Shown piece by piece: positions 3,971 through 44,490 of a DNA stretch of 64,000 bases. The stretch's first letter is position 1. The number at the start of each line of letters is the position of its first letter. The position numbers and the translations under genes were made by a program. The DNA is taken from assembly GCF_003334305.1 (NCBI RefSeq), contig NZ_QOWS01000026.1; one strand, written 5' to 3'. The stretch is from Escherichia coli. GTDB taxonomy: Bacteria; Pseudomonadota; Gammaproteobacteria; Enterobacterales; Enterobacteriaceae. A model generated the notes under the pieces. It was not told where the DNA came from. It worked only from the letters and a program-made list of their open reading frames with translations, and searched no databases.

Positions 3971-4815
3971 TCTTTCTGCGAATTGAGATGACGCCACTGG
4001 CTGGGCGTCATCCCGGTTTCCCGGGTAAACACCACCGAAAAATAGTTACTATCTTCAAAGCCACATTCGGTAGAAATATCACTGATTAACAGGCGGCTAT
4101 GCTGGAGAAGATATTGCGCATGACACACTCTGACCTGTCGCAGATATTGATTGATGGTCATTCCAGTCTGCTGGCGAAATTGCTGACGCAAAACGCGCTC
4201 ACTGCACGATGCCTCATCACAAAATTTATCCAGCGCAAAGGGACTTTTCAGGCTAGCCGCCAGCCGGGTAATCAGCTTATCCAGCAACGTTTCGCTGGAT
4301 GTTGGCGGCAACGAATCACTGGTGTAACGATGGCGATTCAGCAACATCACCAACTGCCCGAACAGCAACTCAGCCATTTCGTTAGCAAACGGCACATGCT
4401 GACTACTTTCATGCTCAAGCTGACCGATAACCTGCCGCGCCTGCGCCATCCCCACGCTACCTAAGCGCCAGTGTGGTTGCCCTGCGCTGGCGCTAAATCC
4501 CGGAATCGCCCCCTGCCAGTCAAGATTCAGCTTCAGACGCTCCGGGCAATAAATAATATTCTGCAAAACCAGATCGTTAACGGAAGCGTAGGAGTGTTTA
4601 TCGTCAGCATGAATGTAAAAGAGATCGCCACGGGTAATGCGATAAGGGCGATCGTTGAGTACATGCAGGCCATTACCGCGCCAGACAATCACCAGCTCAC
4701 AAAAATCATGTGTATGTTCAGCAAAGACATCTTGCGGATAACGGTCAGCCACAGCGACTGCCTGCTGGTCGCTGGCAAAAAAATCATCTTTGAGAAGTTT
4801 TAACTGATGCGCCAC
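3967..4815 (-). CDS. rhaR: AraC-family activator RhaR
   Basis: Track ORF 3967..4989 is over-extended. A GTG at 4815-4813 gives (M)[30 protein letters not shown]..., 282 aa as I recall for RhaR. It has an N-terminal cupin and a C-terminal double HTH. Confidence 0.9.
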
Positions 4816-5725: not shown

Positions 5726-8738
<3,013 letters not shown>

Positions 8739-8742
8739 ACAC

Positions 8743-8870
8743 TGCCGGATGCGGCGCGAGCGCCTTATCCGGCCTACAGGTCGGCAACAGTTGTAGGCCT
8801 GATAAGACGCGACAGCGTCGCATCAGGCATTGATTGCCGGATGCGGCACGAGCGCCTTATCCGGCCTACG
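8743..8870. repeat. BIME: three REP elements in alternating orientation
   Basis: ctgccggatgcggcgcgagcgccttatccggcctaca, then tgtaggcctgataagacgcgacagcgtcgcatcaggca, then tgccggatgcggcacgagcgccttatccggcctac. These are canonical E. coli REP sequences between rhaA and rhaD. Confidence 0.9.
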
Positions 8871-8912
8871 GGTCGTGCATCTGACAACACCGAATTTACA
8901 GGAACACAGAAC

Positions 8913-9737
8913 ATGCAAAACATTACCCAGTCCTGGTTTGTCCAGGGAATGATCAAAGCCACCACCGATGCCTGGCTGAAAGGCTGGGACGAGCGCAACG
9001 GCGGCAACCTGACGCTGCGCCTGGATGACGCCGATATCGCGCCTTATAAAGACAACTTCCATGCACAACCGCGCTATATCCCGCTCAGCCAGCCCATGCC
9101 TTTACTGGCAAATACACCGTTTATTGTCACCGGCTCCGGCAAATTCTTCCGTAACGTCCAGCTTGATCCTGCAGCTAACTTAGGCGTCGTAAAAGTCGAC
9201 AGCGACGGCGCGGGCTACCATATTCTCTGGGGGTTAACCAACGAAGCCGTTCCAACTTCTGAACTTCCGGCTCACTTTCTCTCCCACTGCGAGCGCATTA
9301 AAGCCACCAACGGTAAAGATCGGGTGATCATGCACTGCCACGCCACCAACCTGATCGCCCTCACCTATGTACTGGAAAACGACACCGCGGTCTTTACTCG
9401 CCAACTGTGGGAAGGCAGCACCGAGTGTCTGGTGGTATTCCCGGATGGCGTTGGCATTCTGCCGTGGATGGTGCCCGGCACGGACGAAATCGGCCAGGCG
9501 ACCGCACAAGAGATGCAAAAACATTCGCTGGTGTTGTGGCCCTTCCACGGCGTCTTCGGCAGCGGGTCGACGTTGGATGAAACATTCGGTTTAATCGACA
9601 CCGCAGAAAAATCAGCACAAGTATTAGTGAAGGTTTATTCGATGGGCGGCATGAAACAGACCATCAGCCGTGAAGAGTTGATAGCGCTCGGCAAGCGCTT
9701 CGGCGTTACACCACTAGCCAGTGCGCTGGCGCTGTAA
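8913..9737 (+). CDS. rhaD: Rhamnulose-1-phosphate aldolase
   Basis: Track ORF 8841..9737 starts inside a REP. The ATG at 8913 gives [39 protein letters not shown], 274 aa, a class II aldolase. Confidence 0.95.
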
Positions 9738-9746
9738 GGAGCAAAC

Positions 9747-10061
9747 ATGATCCGCAAAGCCTTTGTCATGCAGGTTAACCCCGACGCTCACGAAGAGTAT
9801 CAGCGTCGGCATAACCCCATCTGGCCGGAACTGGAAGCAGTGTTGAAATCTCACGGTGCGCATAACTACGCCATTTACCTCGACAAAGCGCGTAATCTGC
9901 TGTTTGCCACGGTAGAGATTGAATCTGAAGAGCGCTGGAATGCGGTTGCCAGTACTGATGTTTGCCAACGTTGGTGGAAATATATGACCGACGTCATGCC
10001 CGCGAACCCGGATAACAGCCCGGTGAGTAGCGAACTGCAAGAAGTGTTTTACCTGCCGTAA
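9747..10061 (+). CDS. rhaM: L-rhamnose mutarotase
   Basis: 104 aa, [46 protein letters not shown]... (YiiL). Confidence 0.95.
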
Positions 10062-10070
10062 TTGCCTAAT

Positions 10071-10101
10071 GTGCCGGAGACGCCTCCGGCACAATATTTT
10101 T
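10071..10101 (+). terminator. Rho-independent terminator of the rha operon
   Basis: gtgccggag-acgc-ctccggcac (9-bp GC-rich stem) followed by aatattttta, 10 nt after the rhaM stop. Confidence 0.8.
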
Positions 10102-10373
10102 AATTTCGATTTGAAAAATAAACATATTACACCTTCAGTTAATATATCCCGGTAACTTATATTTCCCCGATGCATTGTGAGTAAATCACAAAAATAATGA
10201 ATAACTCATTAATGATTCATGTGGTTTATTTAAATAACCATTATGTGCATTACTCCGCAAATCTGACCTTTCACTCTGTCTCAAATTGTCATTGTTTACC
10301 GACATATCGCCTCTCATCACTTAATCGCTCCACCATTACAATTGATTAAAATATATTTCATGGAGTCCGATTA

Positions 10374-10820
10374 ATGGCAGCTCTTACTGCAAGCTGTATT
10401 GACCTGAATATTCAGGGCAATGGCGCTTATTCCATTCTGAAGCAGTTGGCGACAATGGCGTTACAAAACGGTTTTATCACCGACTCACACCAGTTCCTGC
10501 AAACCCTGCTGCTGCGCGAAAAAATGCACTCTACTGGATTTGGTTCCGGCATCGCCGTGCCGCACGGTAAAAGCGCCTGCGTTAAACAACCGTTCGTGTT
10601 ATTCGCCCGCAAAGCGCAGGCTATTGACTGGAAAGCCAGCGATGGCGAAGACGTCAATTGCTGGATCTGCCTCGGCGTGCCGCAAAGCGGCGAAGAGGAT
10701 CAGGTCAAAATCATCGGTACACTGTGTCGCAAAATTATCCACCAGGATTTTATTCACCAACTGCGACGAGGCGACGCCGACCAGGTGTTTGCCTTGTTAA
10801 ATCAAACCCTCAGCTCATAA
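10374..10820 (+). CDS. frvA: PTS fructose-like EIIA component
   Basis: 148 aa with the EIIA(Fru/Mtl/Ntr) phosphorylation motif GFGSGIAVPHGKS. Confidence 0.9.
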   Translation: MAALTASCIDLNIQGNGAYSILKQLATMALQNGFITDSHQFLQTLLLREKMHSTGFGSGIAVPHGKSACVKQPFVLFARKAQAIDWKASDGEDVNCWICLGVPQSGEEDQVKIIGTLCRKIIHQDFIHQLRRGDADQVFALLNQTLSS

Positions 10821-10830
10821 GGAAGTGGCG

Positions 10831-12282
10831 ATGGAGTCATCCTTACGTATTGTCGCGATCACCAACTGCCCCGCCGGGATCGCTCACACCTACATGGTGG
10901 CGGAAGCCCTGGAACAGAAAGCCCGTTCTCTCGGCCATACCATAAAAGTGGAAACTCAAGGGTCCAGTGGCGTTGAAAACCGCTTATCCAGCGAAGAGAT
11001 TGCCGCTGCCGATTACGTCATTCTCGCTACCGGGCGTGGCCTGAGCGGCGATGACCGGGCGCGGTTTGCCGGGAAGAAGGTTTATGAGATTGCCATCTCC
11101 CAGGCGTTGAAAAATATCGACCAGATTTTCAGTGAATTACCAACAAACTCGCAGCTTTTTGCCGCAGATAGCGGCGTGAAGCTCGGCAAACAGGAAGTAC
11201 AAAGCGGCAGCGTAATGAGCCACCTGATGGCGGGCGTCTCTGCGGCGCTGCCGTTTGTTATCGGTGGCGGTATCCTGGTGGCGCTTGCCAACATGCTGGT
11301 GCAGTTCGGCCTGCCGTATACCGATATGTCGAAAGGCGCGCCGTCGTTTACCTGGGTGGTTGAATCCATCGGTTATCTCGGCTTCACCTTTATGATCCCC
11401 ATCATGGGCGCTTATATTGCCTCGTCGATTGCCGATAAACCCGCTTTCGCTCCGGCGTTTCTGGTTTGCTATCTGGCGAATGACAAAGCCCTGCTCGGCA
11501 CCCAGTCAGGTGCGGGATTCCTCGGCGCGGTGGTGCTGGGGCTGGCGATTGGCTATTTCGTCTTCTGGTTCCGTAAAGTGCGCCTTGGCAAAGCATTACA
11601 ACCGCTGCTCGGTTCAATGCTGATCCCGTTCGTTACTCTGCTGGTTTTCGGCGTGCTCACTTACTACGTTATCGGACCGGTAATGTCCGACCTCATGGGC
11701 GGGTTGCTGCACTTCCTGAACACCATTCCTCCATCAATGAAATTTGCGGCAGCGTTTCTGGTCGGTGCGATGCTGGCGTTCGATATGGGCGGCCCCATCA
11801 ATAAAACCGCCTGGTTCTTCTGCTTCTCACTGCTGGAAAAACACATTTATGACTGGTACGCCATCGTCGGCGTTGTCGCGCTGATGCCGCCCGTCGCGGC
11901 GGGTCTTGCGACGTTCATTGCGCCCAAACTGTTTACCCGACAGGAAAAAGAGGCTGCCAGTAGTGCCATTGTGGTCGGTGCCACAGTCGCAACCGAACCG
12001 GCTATACCTTACGCTCTGGCAGCTCCGTTGCCGATGATTACCGCCAATACGCTGGCGGGTGGCATTACCGGCGTGCTGGTGATCGCTTTCGGAATCAAAC
12101 GTCTGGCACCTGGTTTGGGTATCTTTGACCCGCTGATCGGCCTGATGTCGCCGGTGGGTTCGTTTTATCTGGTGCTGGCGATTGGCCTCGCGCTGAACAT
12201 TTCATTCATTATCGTCCTGAAAGGATTGTGGTTACGCCGCAAAGCGAAAGCCGCGCAACAGGAGCTTGTCCATGAACATTGA
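10831..12282 (+). CDS. frvB: PTS fructose-like EIIB-EIIC component
   Basis: Track ORF 10825..12282. The ATG at 10831 is preceded by aaggaag. The N-terminal IIB domain has VAITNCPAGIAHTYM (Cys phosphorylation site), followed by a polytopic IIC domain. 483 aa. Confidence 0.9.
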   Translation: MESSLRIVAITNCPAGIAHTYMVAEALEQKARSLGHTIKVETQGSSGVENRLSSEEIAAADYVILATGRGLSGDDRARFAGKKVYEIAISQALKNIDQIFSELPTNSQLFAADSGVKLGKQEVQSGSVMSHLMAGVSAALPFVIGGGILVALANMLVQFGLPYTDMSKGAPSFTWVVESIGYLGFTFMIPIMGAYIASSIADKPAFAPAFLVCYLANDKALLGTQSGAGFLGAVVLGLAIGYFVFWFRKVRLGKALQPLLGSMLIPFVTLLVFGVLTYYVIGPVMSDLMGGLLHFLNTIPPSMKFAAAFLVGAMLAFDMGGPINKTAWFFCFSLLEKHIYDWYAIVGVVALMPPVAAGLATFIAPKLFTRQEKEAASSAIVVGATVATEPAIPYALAAPLPMITANTLAGGITGVLVIAFGIKRLAPGLGIFDPLIGLMSPVGSFYLVLAIGLALNISFIIVLKGLWLRRKAKAAQQELVHEH

Positions 12283-13342
12283 GTTACTGCAACAGTTGTG
12301 CGAAGCCAGCGCCGTCAGCGGCGATGAACAGGAAGTTCGCGACATTCTGATAAACACGCTGGAACCTTGCGTTAATGAAATCACCTTTGATGGTCTGGGC
12401 AGCTTTGTTGCCCGTAAGGGGAATAAAGGTCCAAAAGTTGCCGTTGTCGGGCATATGGATGAAGTCGGCTTTATGGTCACCCACATCGACGAGAGCGGTT
12501 TTCTGCGCTTCACCACCATTGGCGGCTGGTGGAATCAGTCGATGCTCAACCACCGGGTAACCATACGCACACACAAGGGATTTAAAATCCCTGGTGTGAT
12601 TGGTTCCGTCGCGCCTCATGCGTTAACGGAAAAGCAAAAGCAACAACCGCTGTCATTTGATGAGATGTTCATTGATATTGGCGCGAACAGTCGCGAAGAA
12701 GCGGAAAAGCGCGGCGTTGAAATTGGCGATTTTATTAGCCCGGAAGCCAATTTTGCCTGCTGGGGCGAAGATAAAGTAGTCGGAAAGGCGCTGGATAACC
12801 GCATCGGCTGCGCGATGATGGCGGAGCTACTACAGACAGTAAATAACCCAGAAATTACGCTGTACGGCGTTGGCAGTGTGGAAGAAGAAGTTGGGCTACG
12901 CGGGGCACAAACCTCGGCGGAACACATTAAACCGGATGTGGTGATTGTGCTGGATACCGCTGTCGCAGGTGATGTTCCGGGCATTGATAACATTAAATAC
13001 CCGCTGAAACTGGGCCAGGGGCCGGGGCTGATGCTGTTTGACAAGCGCTACTTCCCCAACCAGAAACTGGTAGCAGCGTTTAAAAACTGTGCCACGCAGA
13101 ATGATTTACCGCTGCAATTTTCCACCATGAAAACCGGAGCGACGGATGGCGGGCGCTACAACGTGATGGGCGGCGGGCGTCCGGTTGTCGCGCTGTGTCT
13201 GCCAACTCGTTATCTGCACGCCAACAGCGGTATGATTTCAAAAGCCGATTACGATGCTCTGCTCACGCTGATACGGGGTTTTCTGACCACCTTAACTGCG
13301 GAGAAAGTCAACGCGTTTAGCCAGTTCCGTCAGGTGGATTAA
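12272..13342 (+). CDS. frvX: M42-family metallopeptidase (CelM/FrvX type)
   Basis: Track ORF 12266..13342. The ATG at 12272 follows caggag. It reads MNIELLQQLCEASAVSGDEQEVRDIL...VGHMDEVGFMV...DNRIGCA, motifs typical of M42 aminopeptidases. It overlaps the frvB 3' end by 11 nt. Confidence 0.88.
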   Translation: MNIELLQQLCEASAVSGDEQEVRDILINTLEPCVNEITFDGLGSFVARKGNKGPKVAVVGHMDEVGFMVTHIDESGFLRFTTIGGWWNQSMLNHRVTIRTHKGFKIPGVIGSVAPHALTEKQKQQPLSFDEMFIDIGANSREEAEKRGVEIGDFISPEANFACWGEDKVVGKALDNRIGCAMMAELLQTVNNPEITLYGVGSVEEEVGLRGAQTSAEHIKPDVVIVLDTAVAGDVPGIDNIKYPLKLGQGPGLMLFDKRYFPNQKLVAAFKNCATQNDLPLQFSTMKTGATDGGRYNVMGGGRPVVALCLPTRYLHANSGMISKADYDALLTLIRGFLTTLTAEKVNAFSQFRQVD

Positions 13343-16332: not shown

Positions 16333-17166
16333 TTAATTGCTCAAACGCTGCGGATGGGTATAAACCGTTGCCCGACCCGGTTTACAAAAACCTACCAGTG
16401 TCAGATTACAGCGCTCAGCCACTTCTACAGCAAGCGTGGTCGCGGCAGACACCGCAAACAAAATCTCTACGCCGCACATCGCCGACTTTTGCACCATTTC
16501 ATAACTGGCACGACTGGAAACCAGTACCGCACCTTGCTGCCAGCTTTCCCCTTCTTGTGACCGGCGGCCTAACAGTTTGTCCAGCGCCACATGGCGACCC
16601 ACATCTTCATGCCCGCCGACCAGTTCGCCAGATGGCAACATCCAGGCAGCGGCGTGAGTACAACCAGTCAGTTGCCCCACTGGCTGAAAATCGTTGAGAT
16701 GACGTAATGCATCATCCAGTTTGTTGAGATCAAACGTCTGGGTGAACGGTAGCGGCTGCACCGGTTTTCCGATGTCATTAAGTTGCTCCACGCCGCATAC
16801 GCCACAGCCCGTACGTCCCGCCAGCGCCCGGCGGCGCTCCTTCAACCCCATAAAGCGGCGGCTGGAAAGCTCAATTTGTACTTCAAGACCATTACAGGAA
16901 GGAACGACATCCATGCCGAAGATATCGCGCGGACTTTCTATTATCCCCTCGGAAAGCGAAAAACCGAGCGCAAAGTACTCAAGGTCTTTGGGCGACGCCA
17001 TCATCACCACATGCGAAATGCCGTTGTAGACCAGCGCAACGGGAACTTCTTCCGCGACCTCATCTAACCGTGGGTGTTGTAAATCATCACGCCGCCATAA
17101 CTCAATTTGACGAACACCTGTGATATTTGTCACATTTTCGATTTCTTTTCGCTGTGTTTTTTTCAC
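16333..17166 (-). CDS. fdhD: Formate dehydrogenase sulfurtransferase/accessory protein FdhD
   Basis: 277 aa, [56 protein letters not shown]... Confidence 0.95.
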
Positions 17167-41142: not shown

Positions 41143-41220
<78 letters not shown>

Positions 41221-41225
41221 ATTAA

Positions 41226-42491
41226 TTAAGCTTCAGCCGCCAGCATCTCTTTCTTACGTTGGCTAATACGCTTAACCAGCATTACGGAAACCACCGCACC
41301 ACAGAATGCGAAGCAGGCCATAATGCCAAACACGATTTTGTAGCCAATAATCCCCGGATTTAAATCCAGAATGTAGCCATACAGACTGAAGCAGAACATC
41401 GCCGGGGCGTAACCAATAAAGCTACCCAACGCCATCGCCGCGCCTGTTTTATTTTCAGCAATTTTTGCTTCGCCGATAGGTGCAAAAAATACGGCTCGCT
41501 GTGTAAAGACTATCGCGCCAAAGCCCAGCGTACATGCCATCCCTAAATAGACCGGCATACTTTCGTGCGGCAGCATAATCAACAGTACGAGCGCAGCGGT
41601 ACTGATGATAAAGGTGTAGCATAGATATTTACTCGGCGATTTCAGGATCTTATCTGAAATCATGCCACCAATCGGTCCACCAATCATTTTCAGACAGTAT
41701 TGGTTAATGATGCCGTAAGCCCCCACCAGCGCAACGGGCAATAGATAGATGTTTTTCAGGAATGGAATGAAGAATGTCAGGCCACAGTAAACCGCGTAAA
41801 CGAAGAAGACGTTAAAAGCGATAAGCCAGATGGTTTTGTCTCTCAGCACCGAGGTCATACTGGTGTTTTGCGATGCTCCGTCTTCTTTTTTCACCTCAAC
41901 GGACGGTGCCTCTTCTTTGTCATTCAGGACAAAGAAAATAATAATGCCTACGGCAATCACAATAAGGGAATAGAACCAGATGCCTGCTTTAAAACCCAAT
42001 AAGCCACTGCCAAACCAGGTAAATACTGCCAACGCAGAAAATGCCACCACGGTATCGACAATGCCACGCCCTGTTTCGAAGAAGCCAAACAACCGACCTT
42101 GTTGTTCGCTATTGCCCAATCGACTTACCGACTTGAGCAAGACCGGCCAGTTCATCATGTCGCAAGTAACGCCAAATAGCGCCCAGACAAAGAGGATGCC
42201 CCAATACCCCGGCATTGTCGTCAAATAAACACCCAGTAATCCTGTCGCAATGAGTGAGAATGACATGGTGTATCTGCGCGGTAGTTTATCGGCAAAATAA
42301 ATAGACAGAAAAAAACCCACTGTCGTGACAAATGAGTTTACCGACATAGCATTACCAATTTGACCATTGGTCAAATGGAAATATTCCTGCATCGGGATAT
42401 AAAACGCATCTTTCAGCGACGGTAATTTATAAATTGTACCGCCACACAATGTTAATAGACTAAATAACGCCCATTTCTTTTTCGTGAGCAT
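41226..42491 (-). CDS. yihN: MFS transporter YihN (substrate unknown)
   Basis: 421 aa, 12 predicted TM segments, MLTKKKWALFSLLTLCGGTIYKLPSLKDAFYIPMQEYFHLTNGQIGN... Confidence 0.88.
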   Translation of the reverse strand: MLTKKKWALFSLLTLCGGTIYKLPSLKDAFYIPMQEYFHLTNGQIGNAMSVNSFVTTVGFFLSIYFADKLPRRYTMSFSLIATGLLGVYLTTMPGYWGILFVWALFGVTCDMMNWPVLLKSVSRLGNSEQQGRLFGFFETGRGIVDTVVAFSALAVFTWFGSGLLGFKAGIWFYSLIVIAVGIIIFFVLNDKEEAPSVEVKKEDGASQNTSMTSVLRDKTIWLIAFNVFFVYAVYCGLTFFIPFLKNIYLLPVALVGAYGIINQYCLKMIGGPIGGMISDKILKSPSKYLCYTFIISTAALVLLIMLPHESMPVYLGMACTLGFGAIVFTQRAVFFAPIGEAKIAENKTGAAMALGSFIGYAPAMFCFSLYGYILDLNPGIIGYKIVFGIMACFAFCGAVVSVMLVKRISQRKKEMLAAEA

Positions 42492-42592
42492 AACATCCCC
42501 TAAGCGATTTTTAAAATCACTGTTTTAAAGGCAATAAGATACCGACCATTCATATGGAATGGTTTTATTAACTGCGTATGAGTTAAAACTTA

Positions 42593-43573
42593 TTAGTGGT
42601 TCAGAAGATGGTTTGCCTCTTGTTTGATTTGTTGTAGTACGTTACGCACATGATTTATCTGATTAATTGCATCTTCTTTTTCTTTACGTAACCGCGCATC
42701 CAGTAAATGATTTTCTGGCAATGGTGTTTCACTCATCTGGCGATAAGGGATCCACGGATTATCATCTTCGTCTTCAAAGCGGAACGCCGGCGCATAGTAA
42801 TCAACCTCTTCTTCCAGGCCATATGCCGTCACCTGCGGCTCATCATCACCCAGGCATATAAGGTGCGTTAATAACGCTTTGAACGGCATATCACCCTGAC
42901 CTGAAATACAGGCTTTATGACCCAGGCCACCCGGTTCTTTAACGATCAAGGCATCTTTGATATGGACCTGGGTAATATGCGGCGCCATCGTTTTTAAAGC
43001 GTCGATGGGATGCTCATTTGCATTGATCATGTTCGCAAAATCAAACAGTAAGGAAAGAGATTCCATCTCACTTTCTTTGACCAGCGACACCAGCTCATGG
43101 CTTTTTAAATCTTCATGCTGTTCGATCGTAAAAGTCAGGCCGCTGTCCTGATACGTTTCCCGTACATAGGCAATGTCGTTAGCGATGATCGATAATACGT
43201 CGCGCAAATTACCTTCATAACGTGGATAAAAACGTACGGACGATGCCCCAGTTTTCAACGCAATGGCGACGGCTTCGTCAATAGATGCCTTATCTGAGGC
43301 GCTGGTTTCAATATGAATATCAAGGTTCAGACGGCGGGCTTTATCTCCAAAGGCAGAGAGTTCTTTATCGTCCATATTACCAAGAGAAAAACGCTCGCCA
43401 TCCAGAACATGGATTTTGACGCCACGTAGATTATTTTCACTTGCGATATCAAGTAAATCAGCAGGCAACACTCTTTCCAGCCGCATATTTAAATGAAAGG
43501 CATAAGCATGTAAATAAAGAGGAAGAGTGTCGACACGTTGTAGAATCTTTCTTGCGTTATTTATTGTCACCAT
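42593..43573 (-). CDS. yihM: Xylose-isomerase-like TIM-barrel protein (putative sugar-phosphate isomerase/epimerase) YihM
   Basis: 326 aa, MVTINNARKILQRVDTLPLYLHAYAFHLNMRLERVLPADLLDIASENNLRGVKIHV... Confidence 0.85.
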   Translation of the reverse strand: MVTINNARKILQRVDTLPLYLHAYAFHLNMRLERVLPADLLDIASENNLRGVKIHVLDGERFSLGNMDDKELSAFGDKARRLNLDIHIETSASDKASIDEAVAIALKTGASSVRFYPRYEGNLRDVLSIIANDIAYVRETYQDSGLTFTIEQHEDLKSHELVSLVKESEMESLSLLFDFANMINANEHPIDALKTMAPHITQVHIKDALIVKEPGGLGHKACISGQGDMPFKALLTHLICLGDDEPQVTAYGLEEEVDYYAPAFRFEDEDDNPWIPYRQMSETPLPENHLLDARLRKEKEDAINQINHVRNVLQQIKQEANHLLNH

Positions 43574-43580
43574 AAAACAC

Positions 43581-44291
43581 CTACAGATTAATGATGAGGT
43601 CTACGGCCTCAAATCGCCAATATTCAATATCTATCTGGACAATATTGCCTTGCTGGTCGGCGCGATGCTTTTCAATTAAGATCGCTGGCATACCCGCAGA
43701 ACCGCCAAGATACTTGCTGATATCGCCCGGCATTCTGACGGGTTTGAAAATCAATTTTTTTACTACCGTCTCTTTTTGGTAGCACTTTTCCCAGACTGCA
43801 GAAAATGAGTGGTTTTCAAGTTGTTCAATAAAACCCGGAGCAACTTCAGGATTAATATATGTTTCGTGATAGAAAACTTTATGTCCTTCCAGCGCCCCCC
43901 AGCCGGTGATGCGATAGAGTTCAGTTGATGGTGTCACTGCAATCAGTGGCGCGAGCGTCTTGGGAATATCGCTGGTACGGTTTTTCTCGGTAAACCCCCA
44001 GGAAGGCTCTCGTCCTTGCTCAATTGCGGCCCGCTGAAAGCTCGCCGACAACTCCGGACTGTAATTAAATCGCGGCTGGGTCACGAACCACCCCTTACGA
44101 TCCTTACGGAAGATTTTGGATTCTGCCTCGAGGTTCAACAACGCCTGGCGCAGCGTCATACGTTTAATGCCCAGCAGTTCTCCCAGCTCTCTTTCTGAAG
44201 GGAGTTTTCCACCCGGCGTGGTGATGCCATCTTTCAACCACCGATCCAGTTTCTCTTTTGCATTTTCTACGGTGGATTGATTCTCCGCCAT
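43581..44291 (-). CDS. yihL: GntR-family (HutC/UTRA-type) transcriptional regulator YihL
   Basis: 236 aa. The wHTH reads LPSERELGELLGIKRMTLRQALLNLEAESKIFRKDRKGWFV. The stop is 7 nt from the yihM start. Confidence 0.88.
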   Translation of the reverse strand: MAENQSTVENAKEKLDRWLKDGITTPGGKLPSERELGELLGIKRMTLRQALLNLEAESKIFRKDRKGWFVTQPRFNYSPELSASFQRAAIEQGREPSWGFTEKNRTSDIPKTLAPLIAVTPSTELYRITGWGALEGHKVFYHETYINPEVAPGFIEQLENHSFSAVWEKCYQKETVVKKLIFKPVRMPGDISKYLGGSAGMPAILIEKHRADQQGNIVQIDIEYWRFEAVDLIINL

Positions 44292-44304
44292 TGTTTAATC
44301 CTTT

Positions 44305-44316
44305 TGGTTTAAACCA
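44305..44316. promoter_or_regulatory. Perfect 12-bp palindrome TGGTTTAAACCA, candidate YihL operator
   Basis: It lies 14-25 bp upstream of the yihL ATG, abutting the aagga SD. Its shape matches HutC-type operators (GGT-N-ACC cores). Confidence 0.4.
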
Positions 44317-44456
44317 GATGAAGCATCTTACGCTTACGCCAAAAAAGAAAGCAATTAACGGCGTATGACTTTGCAGATAATTGTGACAAAGCTCTCTATT
44401 GACGTAATCCCAGACTTATAAGGGAGATACTCGCATTGGTGTGCGCTCACGACAGG

Positions 44457-44490
44457 TAAAAAAAAACCTGCCAGCGATGGCAGGTTTTTT
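44457..44490. terminator. Bidirectional rho-independent terminator downstream of bipA
   Basis: aaaaaaaaa-acctgcc-agcga-tggcaggt-tttttt, flanked by A and T runs. Confidence 0.85.

Follow-up and report, generated by a model that had tools for sequence, protein, structure and literature searches.

What do yihL, yihM and yihN do in Escherichia coli, and is their function tied to the sulfoquinovose (SQ) genes beside which they lie? We addressed this question in a 64,000-nucleotide stretch of E. coli DNA (hereafter the window). A first-pass annotation had described the three genes as a regulator/enzyme/carrier module and had raised the possibility, from the SQ neighborhood, of a related (sulfo/phospho)sugar substrate. 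It had also stated that no substrate, inducer or phenotype was assigned. This holds for substrate and inducer, neither of which is published for yihLMN in the literature, but not for phenotype, as deletion phenotypes have been reported for yihL (tryptophan) and yihN (dye).

yihLMN is a discrete three-gene unit

The region is 100% identical to the annotated E. coli yihL, yihM and yihN. Open reading frame coordinates (Table 1) bore out the annotated arrangement of three minus-strand genes, with gaps of 7 nt between yihL and yihM (43574-43580) and 101 nt between yihM and yihN (42492-42592). The unit had been described as insulated by the bipA terminator on one side and by REP sequence near ompL on the other, and RNA folding recovered both elements. 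The terminator folds at -18.7 kcal/mol (z = -6.0) and is followed by a U run; the REP pair folds at -39.3 kcal/mol, and the REP stretch alone has a median of ~21 matching places per E. coli genome. GC content is 45% in the cassette, lower than in bipA (53%) and in the window as a whole (50.5%). Across 80 related loci in many chromosomal contexts, L, M and N were the only conserved gene clusters, as expected of a discrete regulator/enzyme/carrier module.

Table 1. Coordinates of the yihLMN cassette and its regulatory features in the window.
Feature	Position	Strand	Product	Description
REP pair	~41144-41209	.		Between convergent yihN and ompL; downstream boundary of cassette
yihN	41226-42491	-	421 aa	ORF; MFS carrier
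yihM-yihN intergenic stem-loop	42497-42531	-		Pairs with yihN Shine-Dalgarno GGGGA
yihM-yihN intergenic hairpin 1	42545-42563	-		ACCATTC-N5-GAATGGT; inverted repeat of the first-pass annotation
yihM	42593-43573	-	326 aa	ORF; predicted metal-dependent xylose-isomerase-like TIM-barrel enzyme
yihL	43581-44291	-	236 aa	ORF; HutC-subfamily GntR repressor (wHTH + UTRA effector domain)
YihL operator TGGTTTAAACCA	44305-44316	.		Palindrome abutting AAGGA Shine-Dalgarno of yihL
Putative sigma-70 promoter of yihL	44325-44354	-		-35 TTGCTT 44349-44354; 18-nt spacer; -10 TAAGAT 44325-44330
CRP-type site	44382-44397	-		AGAGA-N6-TCACA; centre ~72 nt 5' of inferred start; class I geometry
bipA (typA) intrinsic terminator	44458-44490	-		Upstream boundary of cassette

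Family relationships of YihM, YihN and YihL

YihM matched AP_endonuc_2 (PF01261) at 36.1 bits, above the cut-off of 31.1, and has a xylose-isomerase-like TIM-barrel fold. Its putative metal set, E151, D178, H204 and E254, was invariant in 28 sequences and aligned with the corresponding motifs of 3tva, and many further Arg, Lys and His residues were also invariant. Ketose 3-epimerases, IolI/IolE, UlaE/SgbU and Art22 are likewise xylose-isomerase-like TIM barrels, but share only 11–20% identity with YihM, which is set apart from them by a 40-residue C-terminal helix and by the extra invariant charged residues. Against models of characterised families YihM scored 17.2 bits for IolE (cut-off 290) and 15.2 bits for the L-ribulose-5-phosphate 3-epimerase UlaE/SgbU (cut-off 200), and none of the epimerase or dehydratase models matched at a meaningful score. 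YihM belongs to a small, distinct subfamily. Its nearest structural neighbors mostly have non-phosphorylated keto-sugars or inososes as substrates.

YihN matched MFS_1 (PF07690; 93.9 bits, residues 33–364) over nearly its full length, and it is this match that supports the 12-TM carrier of the first-pass annotation. UhpT, GlpT, PgtP and SLC37A4 (MFS 2.A.1.4) gave its best and only specific matches, though the likeness is remote: the top organophosphate antiporter model, TIGR00881 (PgtP/OPA), scored 70.5 bits, far below its cut-off of 407.75, and the only PDB matches of the YihN family profile were chains of the SLC37A4 glucose-6-phosphate exchanger (E ~1e-3). These best matches weakly suggest kinship with the organophosphate:phosphate exchangers. 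Where SLC37A4 has its TM1 arginine, the alignment places a serine of YihN, and the lysines on either side of it, K22 and K27, are invariant. Deletion of yihN has been reported to lower the uptake of many dyes.

YihL has a GntR winged helix-turn-helix at its N-terminus (PF00392; residues 8–70, 70.2 bits, cut-off 27) and a UTRA effector-binding domain at its C-terminus (PF07702; residues 91–230, 77.5 bits, cut-off 23.8), and its closest solved structures are YvoA/NagR and DasR. The best curated family was PhnR (TIGR03337) at 184.2 bits, with the next family at 51 bits. As the PhnR equivalog cut-off is 296.75, YihL is, by profile score, the nearest relative of PhnR and not a member.

A probable organophosphate substrate from the neighborhoods of YihM relatives

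In Chromobacteriaceae, the operons that hold YihM orthologues (63% identical in Pseudogulbenkiania ferrooxidans) also encode a PhnR-like regulator (267 bits), a HAD-IB histidinol-phosphatase-like phosphatase and an ABC system, all four parts of which best match the 2-aminoethylphosphonate transporters PhnS, PhnT, PhnU and PhnV. A Na/Pi-cotransporter-PhoU protein is encoded in most of these operons, and a PF01663 phosphodiesterase-family protein weakly like phosphonoacetate hydrolase in some. An IMPase-family, HisN-like phosphatase (251–257 bits) comes after the alphaproteobacterial orthologues (43–47% identical), whose operons include MocR-type regulators; in the two Rhodobacterales-type loci yihM and the phosphatase gene are translationally coupled and Na/Pi-PhoU is present. 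Downstream of a metagenomic relative (41% identical) come genes for a HAD-IA phosphatase and a GntR/UTRA regulator. With these HAD-IB, IMPase and HAD-IA examples, the phosphatases adjacent to YihM come from three unrelated families. In the enteric cassette there is none. In the other lineages the ABC importer and Na/Pi-PhoU stand in place of YihN, which would fit an OPA-like exchange role for the carrier.

Canonical RidA (139 bits) was found inside the cassette in 11 loci, in two different gene orders; it is confined to paralogous "group B" cassettes (YihN ~51% identical), with none in the E. coli type. More distant YihM relatives (36–45% identity) also occur in unrelated contexts: one has iol-like genes and a shikimate-dehydrogenase-like gene as neighbors (L097), and another is accompanied by an amino-acid ABC system together with genes for an AraC regulator and an aminotransferase (L096), so function may vary across the family.

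Taken with the PhnR and OPA best matches, the neighborhoods of YihM relatives make an organophosphate the most likely substrate class. An amine group is probably present, with RidA, the MocR regulators and the histidinol-phosphate-phosphatase-like phosphatases as the hints.

We weighed two other substrate classes against an amino-organophosphate. The cassette could instead serve a neutral ketose, keto-sugar or inosose, with YihN as a proton symporter and YihM as a 3-epimerase, isomerase or dehydratase feeding central metabolism. We consider this unlikely, as no kinase or other downstream enzyme was linked to the cassette in any locus, and the orthologous operons carry the three phosphatase families, Na/Pi-PhoU and the phosphodiesterase-family protein. 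The nearest family of the regulator is PhnR and not a sugar regulator, and the nearest relatives of the carrier are organophosphate exchangers.

A phosphonate (C-P) unit akin to the PhnR/PhnSTUV/PhnWX 2-aminoethylphosphonate system, with YihM acting on the phosphonate, is less probable still. YihL and its relatives score best against PhnR (184, 267 and 138 bits), and both the Pseudogulbenkiania ABC parts and the PF01663 protein lean the same way. However, every one of these scores falls under its curated cut-off, as do all the PhnR, PhnSTUV and histidinol-phosphatase model matches, including each of the Pseudogulbenkiania parts against PhnS, PhnT, PhnU and PhnV. No linked phnW, phnX, phnA, phnY, phnZ or C-P lyase gene was seen in the loci examined, phnW/phnX adjoined the cassette in 0 of the 80, and the linked hydrolases belong to phosphomonoesterase families (HAD-IB, HAD-IA and IMPase). 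We know of no xylose-isomerase-like enzyme that cleaves C-P bonds.

YihL binds an operator in front of its own gene

A perfect palindrome had been noted at 44305-44316, against the yihL ribosome-binding site, and these coordinates proved exact. Its core, GTTTAAAC, which lies inside TGGTTTAAACCA, fits GT-N-TA-N-AC, the form of the HutC-type operator consensus. Exact GGTTTAAACC occurs once in the window, at this palindrome. By single-sequence statistics the palindrome alone is unremarkable; its significance rests on its conservation across species and on published ChIP-exo data. It was present in all 70 yihL-carrying loci; in 69 it lies 17–28 nt 5' of the start codon, and it was invariant even where YihL identity drops to 45%. 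In the alphaproteobacterial system of Antarctobacter (L082), where regulator and YihL share 38% identity, two copies precede an ABC-YihM-phosphatase operon. The recognition helix (K/R)RMTLRQ is kept in the regulators that share the operator and is different in those without it. The palindrome was not found in E. coli lacking the cassette; operator and cassette go together in every genome.

In a published ChIP-exo dataset YihL gave one dominant peak, with a signal-to-noise ratio of 60.5, and two others of ~5 (Gao et al., 2021, PMC8464067, supplement). After coordinate conversion, the footprint of the dominant peak matched the palindrome, where no RNA polymerase was bound in glucose; the two marginal sites are near yqcC and yifB (PMC8464067). 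The palindrome TGGTTTAAACCA is the YihL operator, with binding shown by the ChIP-exo data and a phylogenetic footprint beside it. The suggestion that YihL is autoregulatory gains support from the same two sources.

YihL has also been called a repressor of tryptophan biosynthesis, its deletion being cited as raising L-tryptophan titre by 16.3%. Both the titre gain and the label come from secondary citations. That YihL acts chiefly in trans on aromatic amino-acid biosynthesis, and not as a local regulator, we regard as very improbable. The dominant ChIP-exo site is at yihL, with only the marginal yqcC and yifB sites besides and none at trp or aro genes (PMC8464067); the operator keeps company with the cassette; and a modest change in titre can be indirect, arising from derepression of yihMN.

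Promoter, CRP-type site and mRNA structure

Upstream of the operator we identified a putative sigma-70 promoter. A consensus promoter scan made no call at this position, and the -35 TTG and the hexamer geometry relative to the palindrome are kept across genera. Transcription would then start at ~44317-44319, at the edge of the operator.

Further upstream is a CRP-type site. In E. coli its 8/10 matches are alone not above chance, and matches to TGTGA-N6-TCACA at 8–9 of 10 positions keep a constant distance in most Enterobacterales, Aeromonas and Vibrionaceae loci. Serratia has the site displaced by 10 bp, and the Neisseriaceae and Acinetobacter loci had none. This conservation suggests that a class-I CRP site may place the operon under catabolite control.

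The inverted repeat annotated between yihM and yihN at about 42546-42564 is present, but one base away from that position. As RNA, this hairpin 1 folds at -7.3 kcal/mol (z = -1.9), with 93% of cells paired and compensatory changes in 3/7 pairs, in Enterobacteriaceae only. The stem-loop over the yihN Shine-Dalgarno sequence folds at -9.9 kcal/mol (z = -2.3). Intergenic helices 2 and 3 jointly have 6 pairs with changes on both sides, and for the whole yihM-yihN intergenic structure 84% of cells are paired, compared to 34–56% with partners slid.

The cassette is distributed independently of the SQ cluster

In K-12-type E. coli, some Citrobacter and Kluyvera, yihLMN adjoins the SQ cluster and is convergent with it. 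SQ-like genes were found within 10 kb in 12 of the 80 loci, all in the typA context of Enterobacteriaceae, and in none of the other 68. The cassette occurs in unrelated contexts in Serratia, Buttiauxella, Aeromonas, Photobacterium, Neisseriaceae and Acinetobacter, and a typA-yihLMN-yihX arrangement without SQ genes was found in Escherichia sp. E1V33, Pseudocitrobacter, Klebsiella and Raoultella. Within E. coli, Nissle has yihLMN beside a different 8-gene cluster, and O2:H6 has the Nissle-type cluster with a clean absence of yihLMN; all four combinations of presence and absence of the cassette and of an SQ-type cluster occur in the typA-yihX interval. The cassette is not present in ~1,075–1,190 of 5,426 complete E. 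coli genomes.

Co-occurrence of yihLMN with yihO-yihW had been set beforehand as the test of an SQ link, to be refuted by independent inheritance. Independent inheritance is what was found: presence and absence of yihLMN and of yihO-yihW/csqR are independent both across genera and within E. coli. By these genome comparisons, yihLMN moves between genomes independently of its neighboring SQ genes. The related sulfosugar substrate is thus contradicted by the 68 loci without SQ genes and by the E. coli distribution; of the proposed (sulfo/phospho)sugar, a phospho compound is favored and a sulfo compound is not. Although the convergent adjacency and the sugar isomerase/epimerase fold of YihM speak for it, we give hardly any credence to yihLMN as a salvage or detoxification accessory for an SQ-related (sulfo)sugar, coupled to yihO-yihW, as the phylogenetic profiles already contradict it, the related operons link phosphatases and phosphate transporters and nothing sulfur-related, and YihL ChIP-exo has no site in the SQ cluster (PMC8464067).

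Discussion

Our analyses lead us, with about even confidence, to read yihLMN as a self-contained, horizontally mobile and substrate-inducible catabolic or salvage operon for an amino-organophosphate, with no functional tie to SQ metabolism. YihL, seated on an operator that overlaps the probable start of its own promoter, would repress yihL-yihM-yihN, and the upstream class-I CRP site may place the operon under catabolite control. The substrate would be a small organophosphate, a monoester or a diester, probably amino-bearing. YihN would import it, plausibly against phosphate, which would be the job of the ABC importer and Na/Pi-PhoU elsewhere. YihM, as a predicted divalent-metal TIM barrel of the sugar isomerase/epimerase/beta-eliminase clade, would convert the phosphorylated substrate, and where RidA is present the reaction may go via an imine or enamine. 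In ABC-importer lineages a dedicated phosphatase would then free the phosphate. In enterics the product may be a central phospho-metabolite, or housekeeping phosphatases may do the job.

Several points count against the amino-organophosphate reading: the weak OPA score of YihN, the enteric cassette without phosphatase, RidA in group B only, structural relatives of YihM that act on non-phosphorylated sugars, models below cut-off and the uncalled promoter.

We also entertain, as a tentative and somewhat doubtful extension, that YihM and its orthologues represent an unrecognised metabolic step. A metal-dependent xylose-isomerase-fold enzyme would act on an amino-organophosphate by imine/enamine release or rearrangement, forming a pathway core in Alpha-, Beta- and Gammaproteobacteria that is served by varied importers and phosphatases. 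Example substrates would be phosphates of the Amadori or amino-alcohol type, or phosphodiesters made from these; the importers would be an MFS exchanger, a PhnS-type ABC or a Dpp-type ABC system, and the phosphatases would come from the three unrelated families.

Three known systems offer likenesses. The E. coli frl operon (FrlR-FrlA-FrlB-FrlC-FrlD), which serves fructoselysine/psicoselysine catabolism with FrlC as a 3-epimerase, handles an amine plus keto-sugar substrate as a phosphate ester. Like yihLMN, it combines a HutC-type GntR/UTRA repressor, a xylose-isomerase-like barrel and a carrier, but it has a kinase (FrlD), a SIS-type deglycase (FrlB) and an APC-family carrier, against one enzyme and a carrier of the MFS type in yihLMN. 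The Salmonella PhnR/PhnSTUV/PhnWX system shares the regulator family of YihL, best matches to PhnS, PhnT, PhnU and PhnV in the YihM-linked ABC system, and a small amino-phosph(on)ate as the ligand class. It differs in that yihLMN has no transaminase or phosphonatase and has a TIM-barrel enzyme with linked phosphomonoesterases, and the scores are below equivalog cut-offs. The Agrobacterium acc system takes up agrocinopine through an ABC importer with a Dpp-type binding protein and uses the phosphodiesterase AccF and the phosphatase AccG. Compared by gene logic, acc and the ABC-type YihM operons both have import of a phosphodiester or an unusual phosphomonoester, a cytoplasmic phosphodiesterase-family protein, a dedicated phosphatase (IMPase/HAD) and a local repressor; acc, however, has no xylose-isomerase-like enzyme, and its phosphodiesterase is GlpQ-type, whereas that of the YihM operons is PF01663.

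As an operon, yihLMN is of an ordinary kind. Its three genes are among the uncharacterised genes of E. coli K-12, and a tempting but wrong association with SQ metabolism is now removed from them. The regulatory anatomy now comprises the operator, a promoter and a CRP site that are both probable, and mRNA structure at the ribosome-binding site of yihN. The substrate search narrows: in place of any sugar derivative it now covers small organophosphates that probably bear an amino group, which gives a short testable ligand list. Should the substrate prove to be a phospho-amine from host or diet, the patchy occurrence of the cassette across E. coli lineages and gut Enterobacterales could bear on niche use.

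Gene Layout and Domain Content of the yihLMN Cassette

ORF calls placed yihL, yihM and yihN co-directionally on the minus strand, with intergenic gaps of 7 nt (yihL-yihM) and 101 nt (yihM-yihN), in agreement with the first-pass annotation. The window runs in the reverse orientation of K-12. A 3.4-kb cassette query matched an annotated E. coli chromosome bearing the three genes at 100% identity; there it is flanked upstream by typA (bipA) and downstream, in convergent orientation, by ompL and by yihO-csqR of the sulfoquinovose (SQ) cluster. The proposed insulation of the unit held, with a strong bipA terminator on one side and a REP pair on the other; this terminator was confirmed by folding, having been missed, like the inferred yihL promoter, in a scan for consensus promoters and terminators. 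The REP pair was also the source of all surplus megablast matches (126,105 places in 5,426 genomes, median 21 per genome).

Positions in the window of the yihLMN genes and associated elements
Feature	Position	Strand	Remarks
yihL	43581-44291	-	ORF, 236 aa
yihM	42593-43573	-	ORF, 326 aa
yihN	41226-42491	-	ORF, 421 aa
Palindrome TGGTTTAAACCA	44305-44316		abuts AAGGA ribosome-binding site of yihL
Second inverted repeat	42545-42563		yihM-yihN spacer
bipA terminator			cassette flank; folding -18.7 kcal/mol, z = -6
REP pair	41144-41209		between yihN and ompL
Candidate CRP site AGAGAgctttgTCACA	44382-44397		alone not above chance

Domain searches likewise returned the expected content, namely GntR and UTRA domains for YihL, a xylose-isomerase-like TIM barrel for YihM and MFS_1 for YihN. 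The best curated family for YihL was PhnR, the 2-aminoethylphosphonate regulator, at 184 bits against 51 for the next family but under the 297-bit cut-off. For YihN it was the PgtP/OPA organophosphate:phosphate exchangers (70 bits, far under cut-off), and a profile of 16 YihN homologs searched against the whole PDB retrieved only chains of the SLC37A4 glucose-6-phosphate exchanger, at an E-value of about 1e-3. The Pfam match of YihM was barely over threshold, and no match was found to characterized equivalog models; its structure model has a pLDDT of 95.8, and the closest solved structure is Art22. Around 75 residues are invariant across YihM sequences of 43–100% identity, comprising the expected E151, D178, H204 and E254 set together with many Arg, Lys and His residues. 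The family is small: a search among 1.84 billion gave 47 representatives at E ≤ 1e-30, many of these being fragments.

The Cassette Is Inherited Independently of the Sulfoquinovose Cluster

We fetched 80 loci encoding YihM relatives, one genome per species, queried each with the proteins of the window and grouped the full set of ORFs into clusters. Just three clusters recurred widely, those of YihM (76 loci), YihN (75) and YihL (67); every other was confined to 20 or fewer of the 80, and those reaching 20 were the Enterobacteriaceae glnALG-typA backbone. The triad occurs in unrelated contexts in Serratia, Buttiauxella, Budvicia, Pragia, Edwardsiella, Aeromonas, Photobacterium, Vibrio, Neisseriaceae and Acinetobacter. 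Two paralogous cassette types were distinguished, both present in some genomes: group A, which includes E. coli, has YihN identities of at least 72%, and group B has YihN about 51% and YihM about 61% identical.

The first-pass annotation had guessed at a functional tie to the adjoining SQ cluster. Of the 80 loci, only 12 had SQ-like genes within 10 kb, every one of them in the typA context, and the arrangement typA-yihLMN-yihX was found without SQ genes in Escherichia sp. E1V33, Pseudocitrobacter, Klebsiella and Raoultella. Presence and absence are also independent within E. coli, where the cassette was found in 4,238–4,351 of the 5,426 complete genomes. In strain Nissle 1917 yihLMN precedes a different eight-gene cluster, and in an O2:H6 strain, located through a typA-yihL junction query, that cluster comes straight after typA and yihLMN is cleanly missing. 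A REP match in E. coli O18, tried as another marker of the locus, fell in the bio-ybh region and was uninformative. The GC content of the cassette is 45%, against 50.5% for the window. yihLMN is thus a self-contained mobile unit with no tie to the SQ cluster, and this independent inheritance, seen both across species and among complete E. coli genomes, is the outcome that the annotation had itself named as counting against its proposal.

The eight-gene cluster replaces K-12 ompL-yihO...csqR at the same site in Nissle 1917 (L084, 12336-20894) and O2:H6 (L086, 14501-23059). It encodes a DeoR regulator, a sugar kinase, a YihU-like reductase, an aldolase, a Zn alcohol dehydrogenase, two MFS carriers and an aldose 1-epimerase, and lacks sulfoquinovosidase (yihQ) and isomerase (yihS). 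Loci of E. ruysiae, Citrobacter and Klebsiella likewise contain homologs of YihT, YihU, YihV and CsqR, at about 65–74% identity. In a locus recorded as Shigella flexneri SFBU1023 (L081, ~6769-12300), glnA, typA, yihL and yihM gave only 43–55% identity by tblastn, whereas the adjoining yihO-yihS were 99–100% identical; this stretch looks like a locally degraded or low-quality assembly rather than a truly divergent cassette.

YihL Binds a Conserved Operator Upstream of Its Own Gene

The palindrome was found where the first-pass annotation had placed it, against the yihL ribosome-binding site. Its core, GGTTTA(A/T)ACC, was present in all 70 loci with a yihL homolog, nearly always as the full TGGTTTAAACCA, and lay 17–28 nt 5' of the yihL start codon in 69 of them. 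This position is kept at a YihL identity of 45%, where the flanking DNA is unalignable. The 10-mer core occurred 77 times in 1.6 Mb of loci, 70 of these at the operator position. The operator core GTTTAAAC agrees with the HutC-type operator form, and the YihL regulators with this operator share an unvarying predicted recognition helix, (K/R)RMTLRQ. In Antarctobacter (L082), a regulator 38% identical to YihL with the helix NRMSLRQ is predicted to control an operon of ABC importer, YihM and phosphatase genes; although the genome is high in GC, its divergent promoter region contains TGGTTTAAACCA twice, the copies being separated by 12 nt. For betaproteobacterial regulators with a different helix (TRTTVKE), no operator site was found.

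Three YihL ChIP-exo sites have been reported, mapped on NC_000913.2 (Gao et al., 2021; PMC8464067, supplementary file 5). The dominant one (signal/noise 60.5, 4058436-4058459, labeled yihL) was not RNAP-bound in glucose, and the remaining two had signal/noise of about 5 (PMC8464067). In version.3 of NC_000913 the palindrome lies at 4060422-4060433. The offset between the versions is 1,977 bp, the difference in genome length. Converted by this offset, the footprint becomes 4060413-4060436 and spans the palindrome, so YihL binds there. Together with the conservation of the operator, this suggests that YihL represses its own unit through the palindrome, as the autoregulation suggested earlier would have it.

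Both cassette types are carried by Citrobacter sp. Awk 4 (L009/L066), Citrobacter sp. NCU1 (L010/L071) and Buttiauxella ferragutiae (L033/L068). The operator core before their A and B cassettes is the same or nearly so, the B operator having one central change, GGTTTATACC, and the flanks differ (TCTGG...CCAAA against ATTGG...CCAGA). Since the operators are near-identical, the two YihL paralogs, about 46% identical, could cross-regulate. Two Photobacterium loci (L062, 11636; L077, 11336) have, besides the yihL-upstream site, a second exact GGTTTAAACC in the 5' coding part of yihN, which may be an additional operator or a chance match.

Promoter Region and Intergenic Spacer

Alignment anchored on the palindrome revealed a conserved TTG about 39 nt upstream. 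The inferred E. coli yihL promoter is TTGCTT, 18 nt, TAAGAT, a geometry that would put the transcription start at the operator edge. Upstream of it lies a candidate CRP site, TG-N-GA-N6-(T/C)CACA. In most Enterobacterales, Aeromonas and Vibrionaceae loci, of both cassette types, it keeps a constant offset and matches 8–9 of 10 consensus positions; in Serratia it is shifted by exactly 10 bp, and it was absent from the Neisseriaceae and Acinetobacter loci. The case for this site comes from its conserved position, not from the E. coli site alone. A window-wide pattern search also returned a perfect CRP-consensus palindrome, TGTGATATTTGTCACA, at 17119-17134.

The 101-nt yihM-yihN spacer of Enterobacteriaceae folds into the hairpin noted previously and a second stem-loop, which pairs with the yihN Shine-Dalgarno sequence. 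In the alignment 84% of cells were paired, compared to 34–56% with slid controls. Nine pairs showed changes on both sides, a covariation equaled by none of 500 shuffles, to be read with caution as the structure was taken from the E. coli sequence and the aligned sequences are closely related. We also considered the spacer as a relic of ridA, which occupies this place in Photobacterium, and tblastn gave no such signal.

Gene Neighborhoods of YihM Relatives Suggest a Probable Organophosphate Substrate

Canonical RidA, an imine/enamine deaminase, is encoded inside group B cassettes in 11 loci and two gene orders: L-M-RidA-N in Photobacterium and Vibrio, and a YheO-type regulator followed by RidA-N-M in Proteus, Providencia and Moellerella. 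In Pseudogulbenkiania ferrooxidans (Chromobacteriaceae), a YihM 63% identical to the E. coli protein is last in an operon with a divergent PhnR-like regulator (267 bits), an importer whose binding protein, two permeases and ATPase have PhnS, PhnU, PhnV and PhnT as best families, a HAD-IB phosphatase nearest to histidinol-phosphate phosphatases, and a Na/Pi-cotransporter-PhoU protein. The Crenobacter and Pseudogulbenkiania MAI-1 loci add a cytoplasmic PF01663 protein (phosphodiesterase/alkaline-phosphatase superfamily); in a Chromobacteriaceae-type metagenomic contig (L089), the ABC importer and HAD-IB phosphatase occur without PF01663 or Na/Pi-PhoU.

Five alphaproteobacterial loci (Shinella, Ensifer, Aminobacter, Antarctobacter and a metagenomic contig), with YihM 43–47% identical, show the order homologous ABC importer, YihM, HisN-like IMPase-family phosphatase (251–257 bits, cut-off 275), under MocR-type or YihL-type regulators. 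In Antarctobacter and the metagenomic contig the YihM and phosphatase genes overlap stop to start and Na/Pi-PhoU is also present. A 41%-identical metagenomic relative is preceded by a Dpp-type ABC importer and followed by a HAD-IA phosphatase and a GntR/UTRA regulator, so that the place next to YihM is taken by phosphatases of three unrelated families. Several other metagenomic contigs were short and uninformative as to context.

Three of these operons adjoin the same second gene set: Antarctobacter (L082, 9937-16782), a related metagenomic contig (L083, 11362-17038) and the betaproteobacterium Pseudogulbenkiania MAI-1 (L088, 9271-16364). It comprises a LysR regulator, an agmatinase-family ureohydrolase and an NCS1 transporter, with a BetA-type choline dehydrogenase in L082 and L088 (over the curated cut-off in L088), and is completed by an aldehyde dehydrogenase or by two SDRs and a deacetylase. 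The set could represent either a linked pathway, acting on a guanidino- or choline-like moiety, or an island transferred along with the YihM operon.

The contexts of more distant YihM relatives (36–45% identical) indicate that the wider family is not uniform. One lies with an amino-acid ABC system, an AraC regulator and an aminotransferase. Another (45%; L097, 6609-10002) has an NMT1-like binding protein on one side and a shikimate-dehydrogenase-like gene on the other, and iol-like genes close by (two GFO/IDH/MocA oxidoreductases, another AP_endonuc_2 protein and a TPP enzyme), which suggests another specificity.

The three phosphatase families, the recurrent phosphate-handling proteins and the amino-phosphonate-like regulators and importers suggest an organophosphate, probably bearing an amino group, as the cassette's substrate. 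The OPA-like YihN of enteric bacteria would stand in place of the importer and phosphate transporter, and the TGGTTTAAACCA operator shared with Antarctobacter would make the ABC-type and MFS-type versions one regulon family. The reading is guilt by association throughout: the phosphatase is missing from the enteric cassette, RidA is limited to group B, and every family match behind it (PhnR, OPA, PhnS/T/U/V, phosphatases) was under its cut-off. Speculative candidates are phosphoethanolamine or phosphocholine and their glycerol/serine diesters, phospho-serine or phospho-threonine, and amino-sugar or Amadori-type phosphates.

Literature Status and Significance

Literature searches on yihL, yihM, yihN and their b-numbers gave no published substrate or inducer; those combining xylose-isomerase-like, RidA, phosphatase and GntR gave nothing relevant, and those on Art22 only unrelated papers. 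YihL is counted among the transcription factors of unknown function, and its ChIP-exo site is reported in a supplement only (PMC8464067). The earlier statement that no substrate, inducer or phenotype had been assigned therefore stands for substrate and inducer, but effects on dyes and tryptophan are on record: deletion of yihN lowers the accumulation of many dyes, and deletion of yihL is reported, in secondary citations, to raise tryptophan titre by 16.3%, YihL being termed there a repressor of Trp biosynthesis. Because YihL has a single dominant ChIP site, the tryptophan effect is more likely indirect.

The SQ hypothesis is wrong, and autoregulation already has experimental backing that had gone unrecognized. 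yihLMN belongs to an ordinary class of inducible catabolic operons, with a specificity that is possibly interesting, and what is gained is a far narrower, testable substrate hypothesis together with a defined regulatory anatomy.
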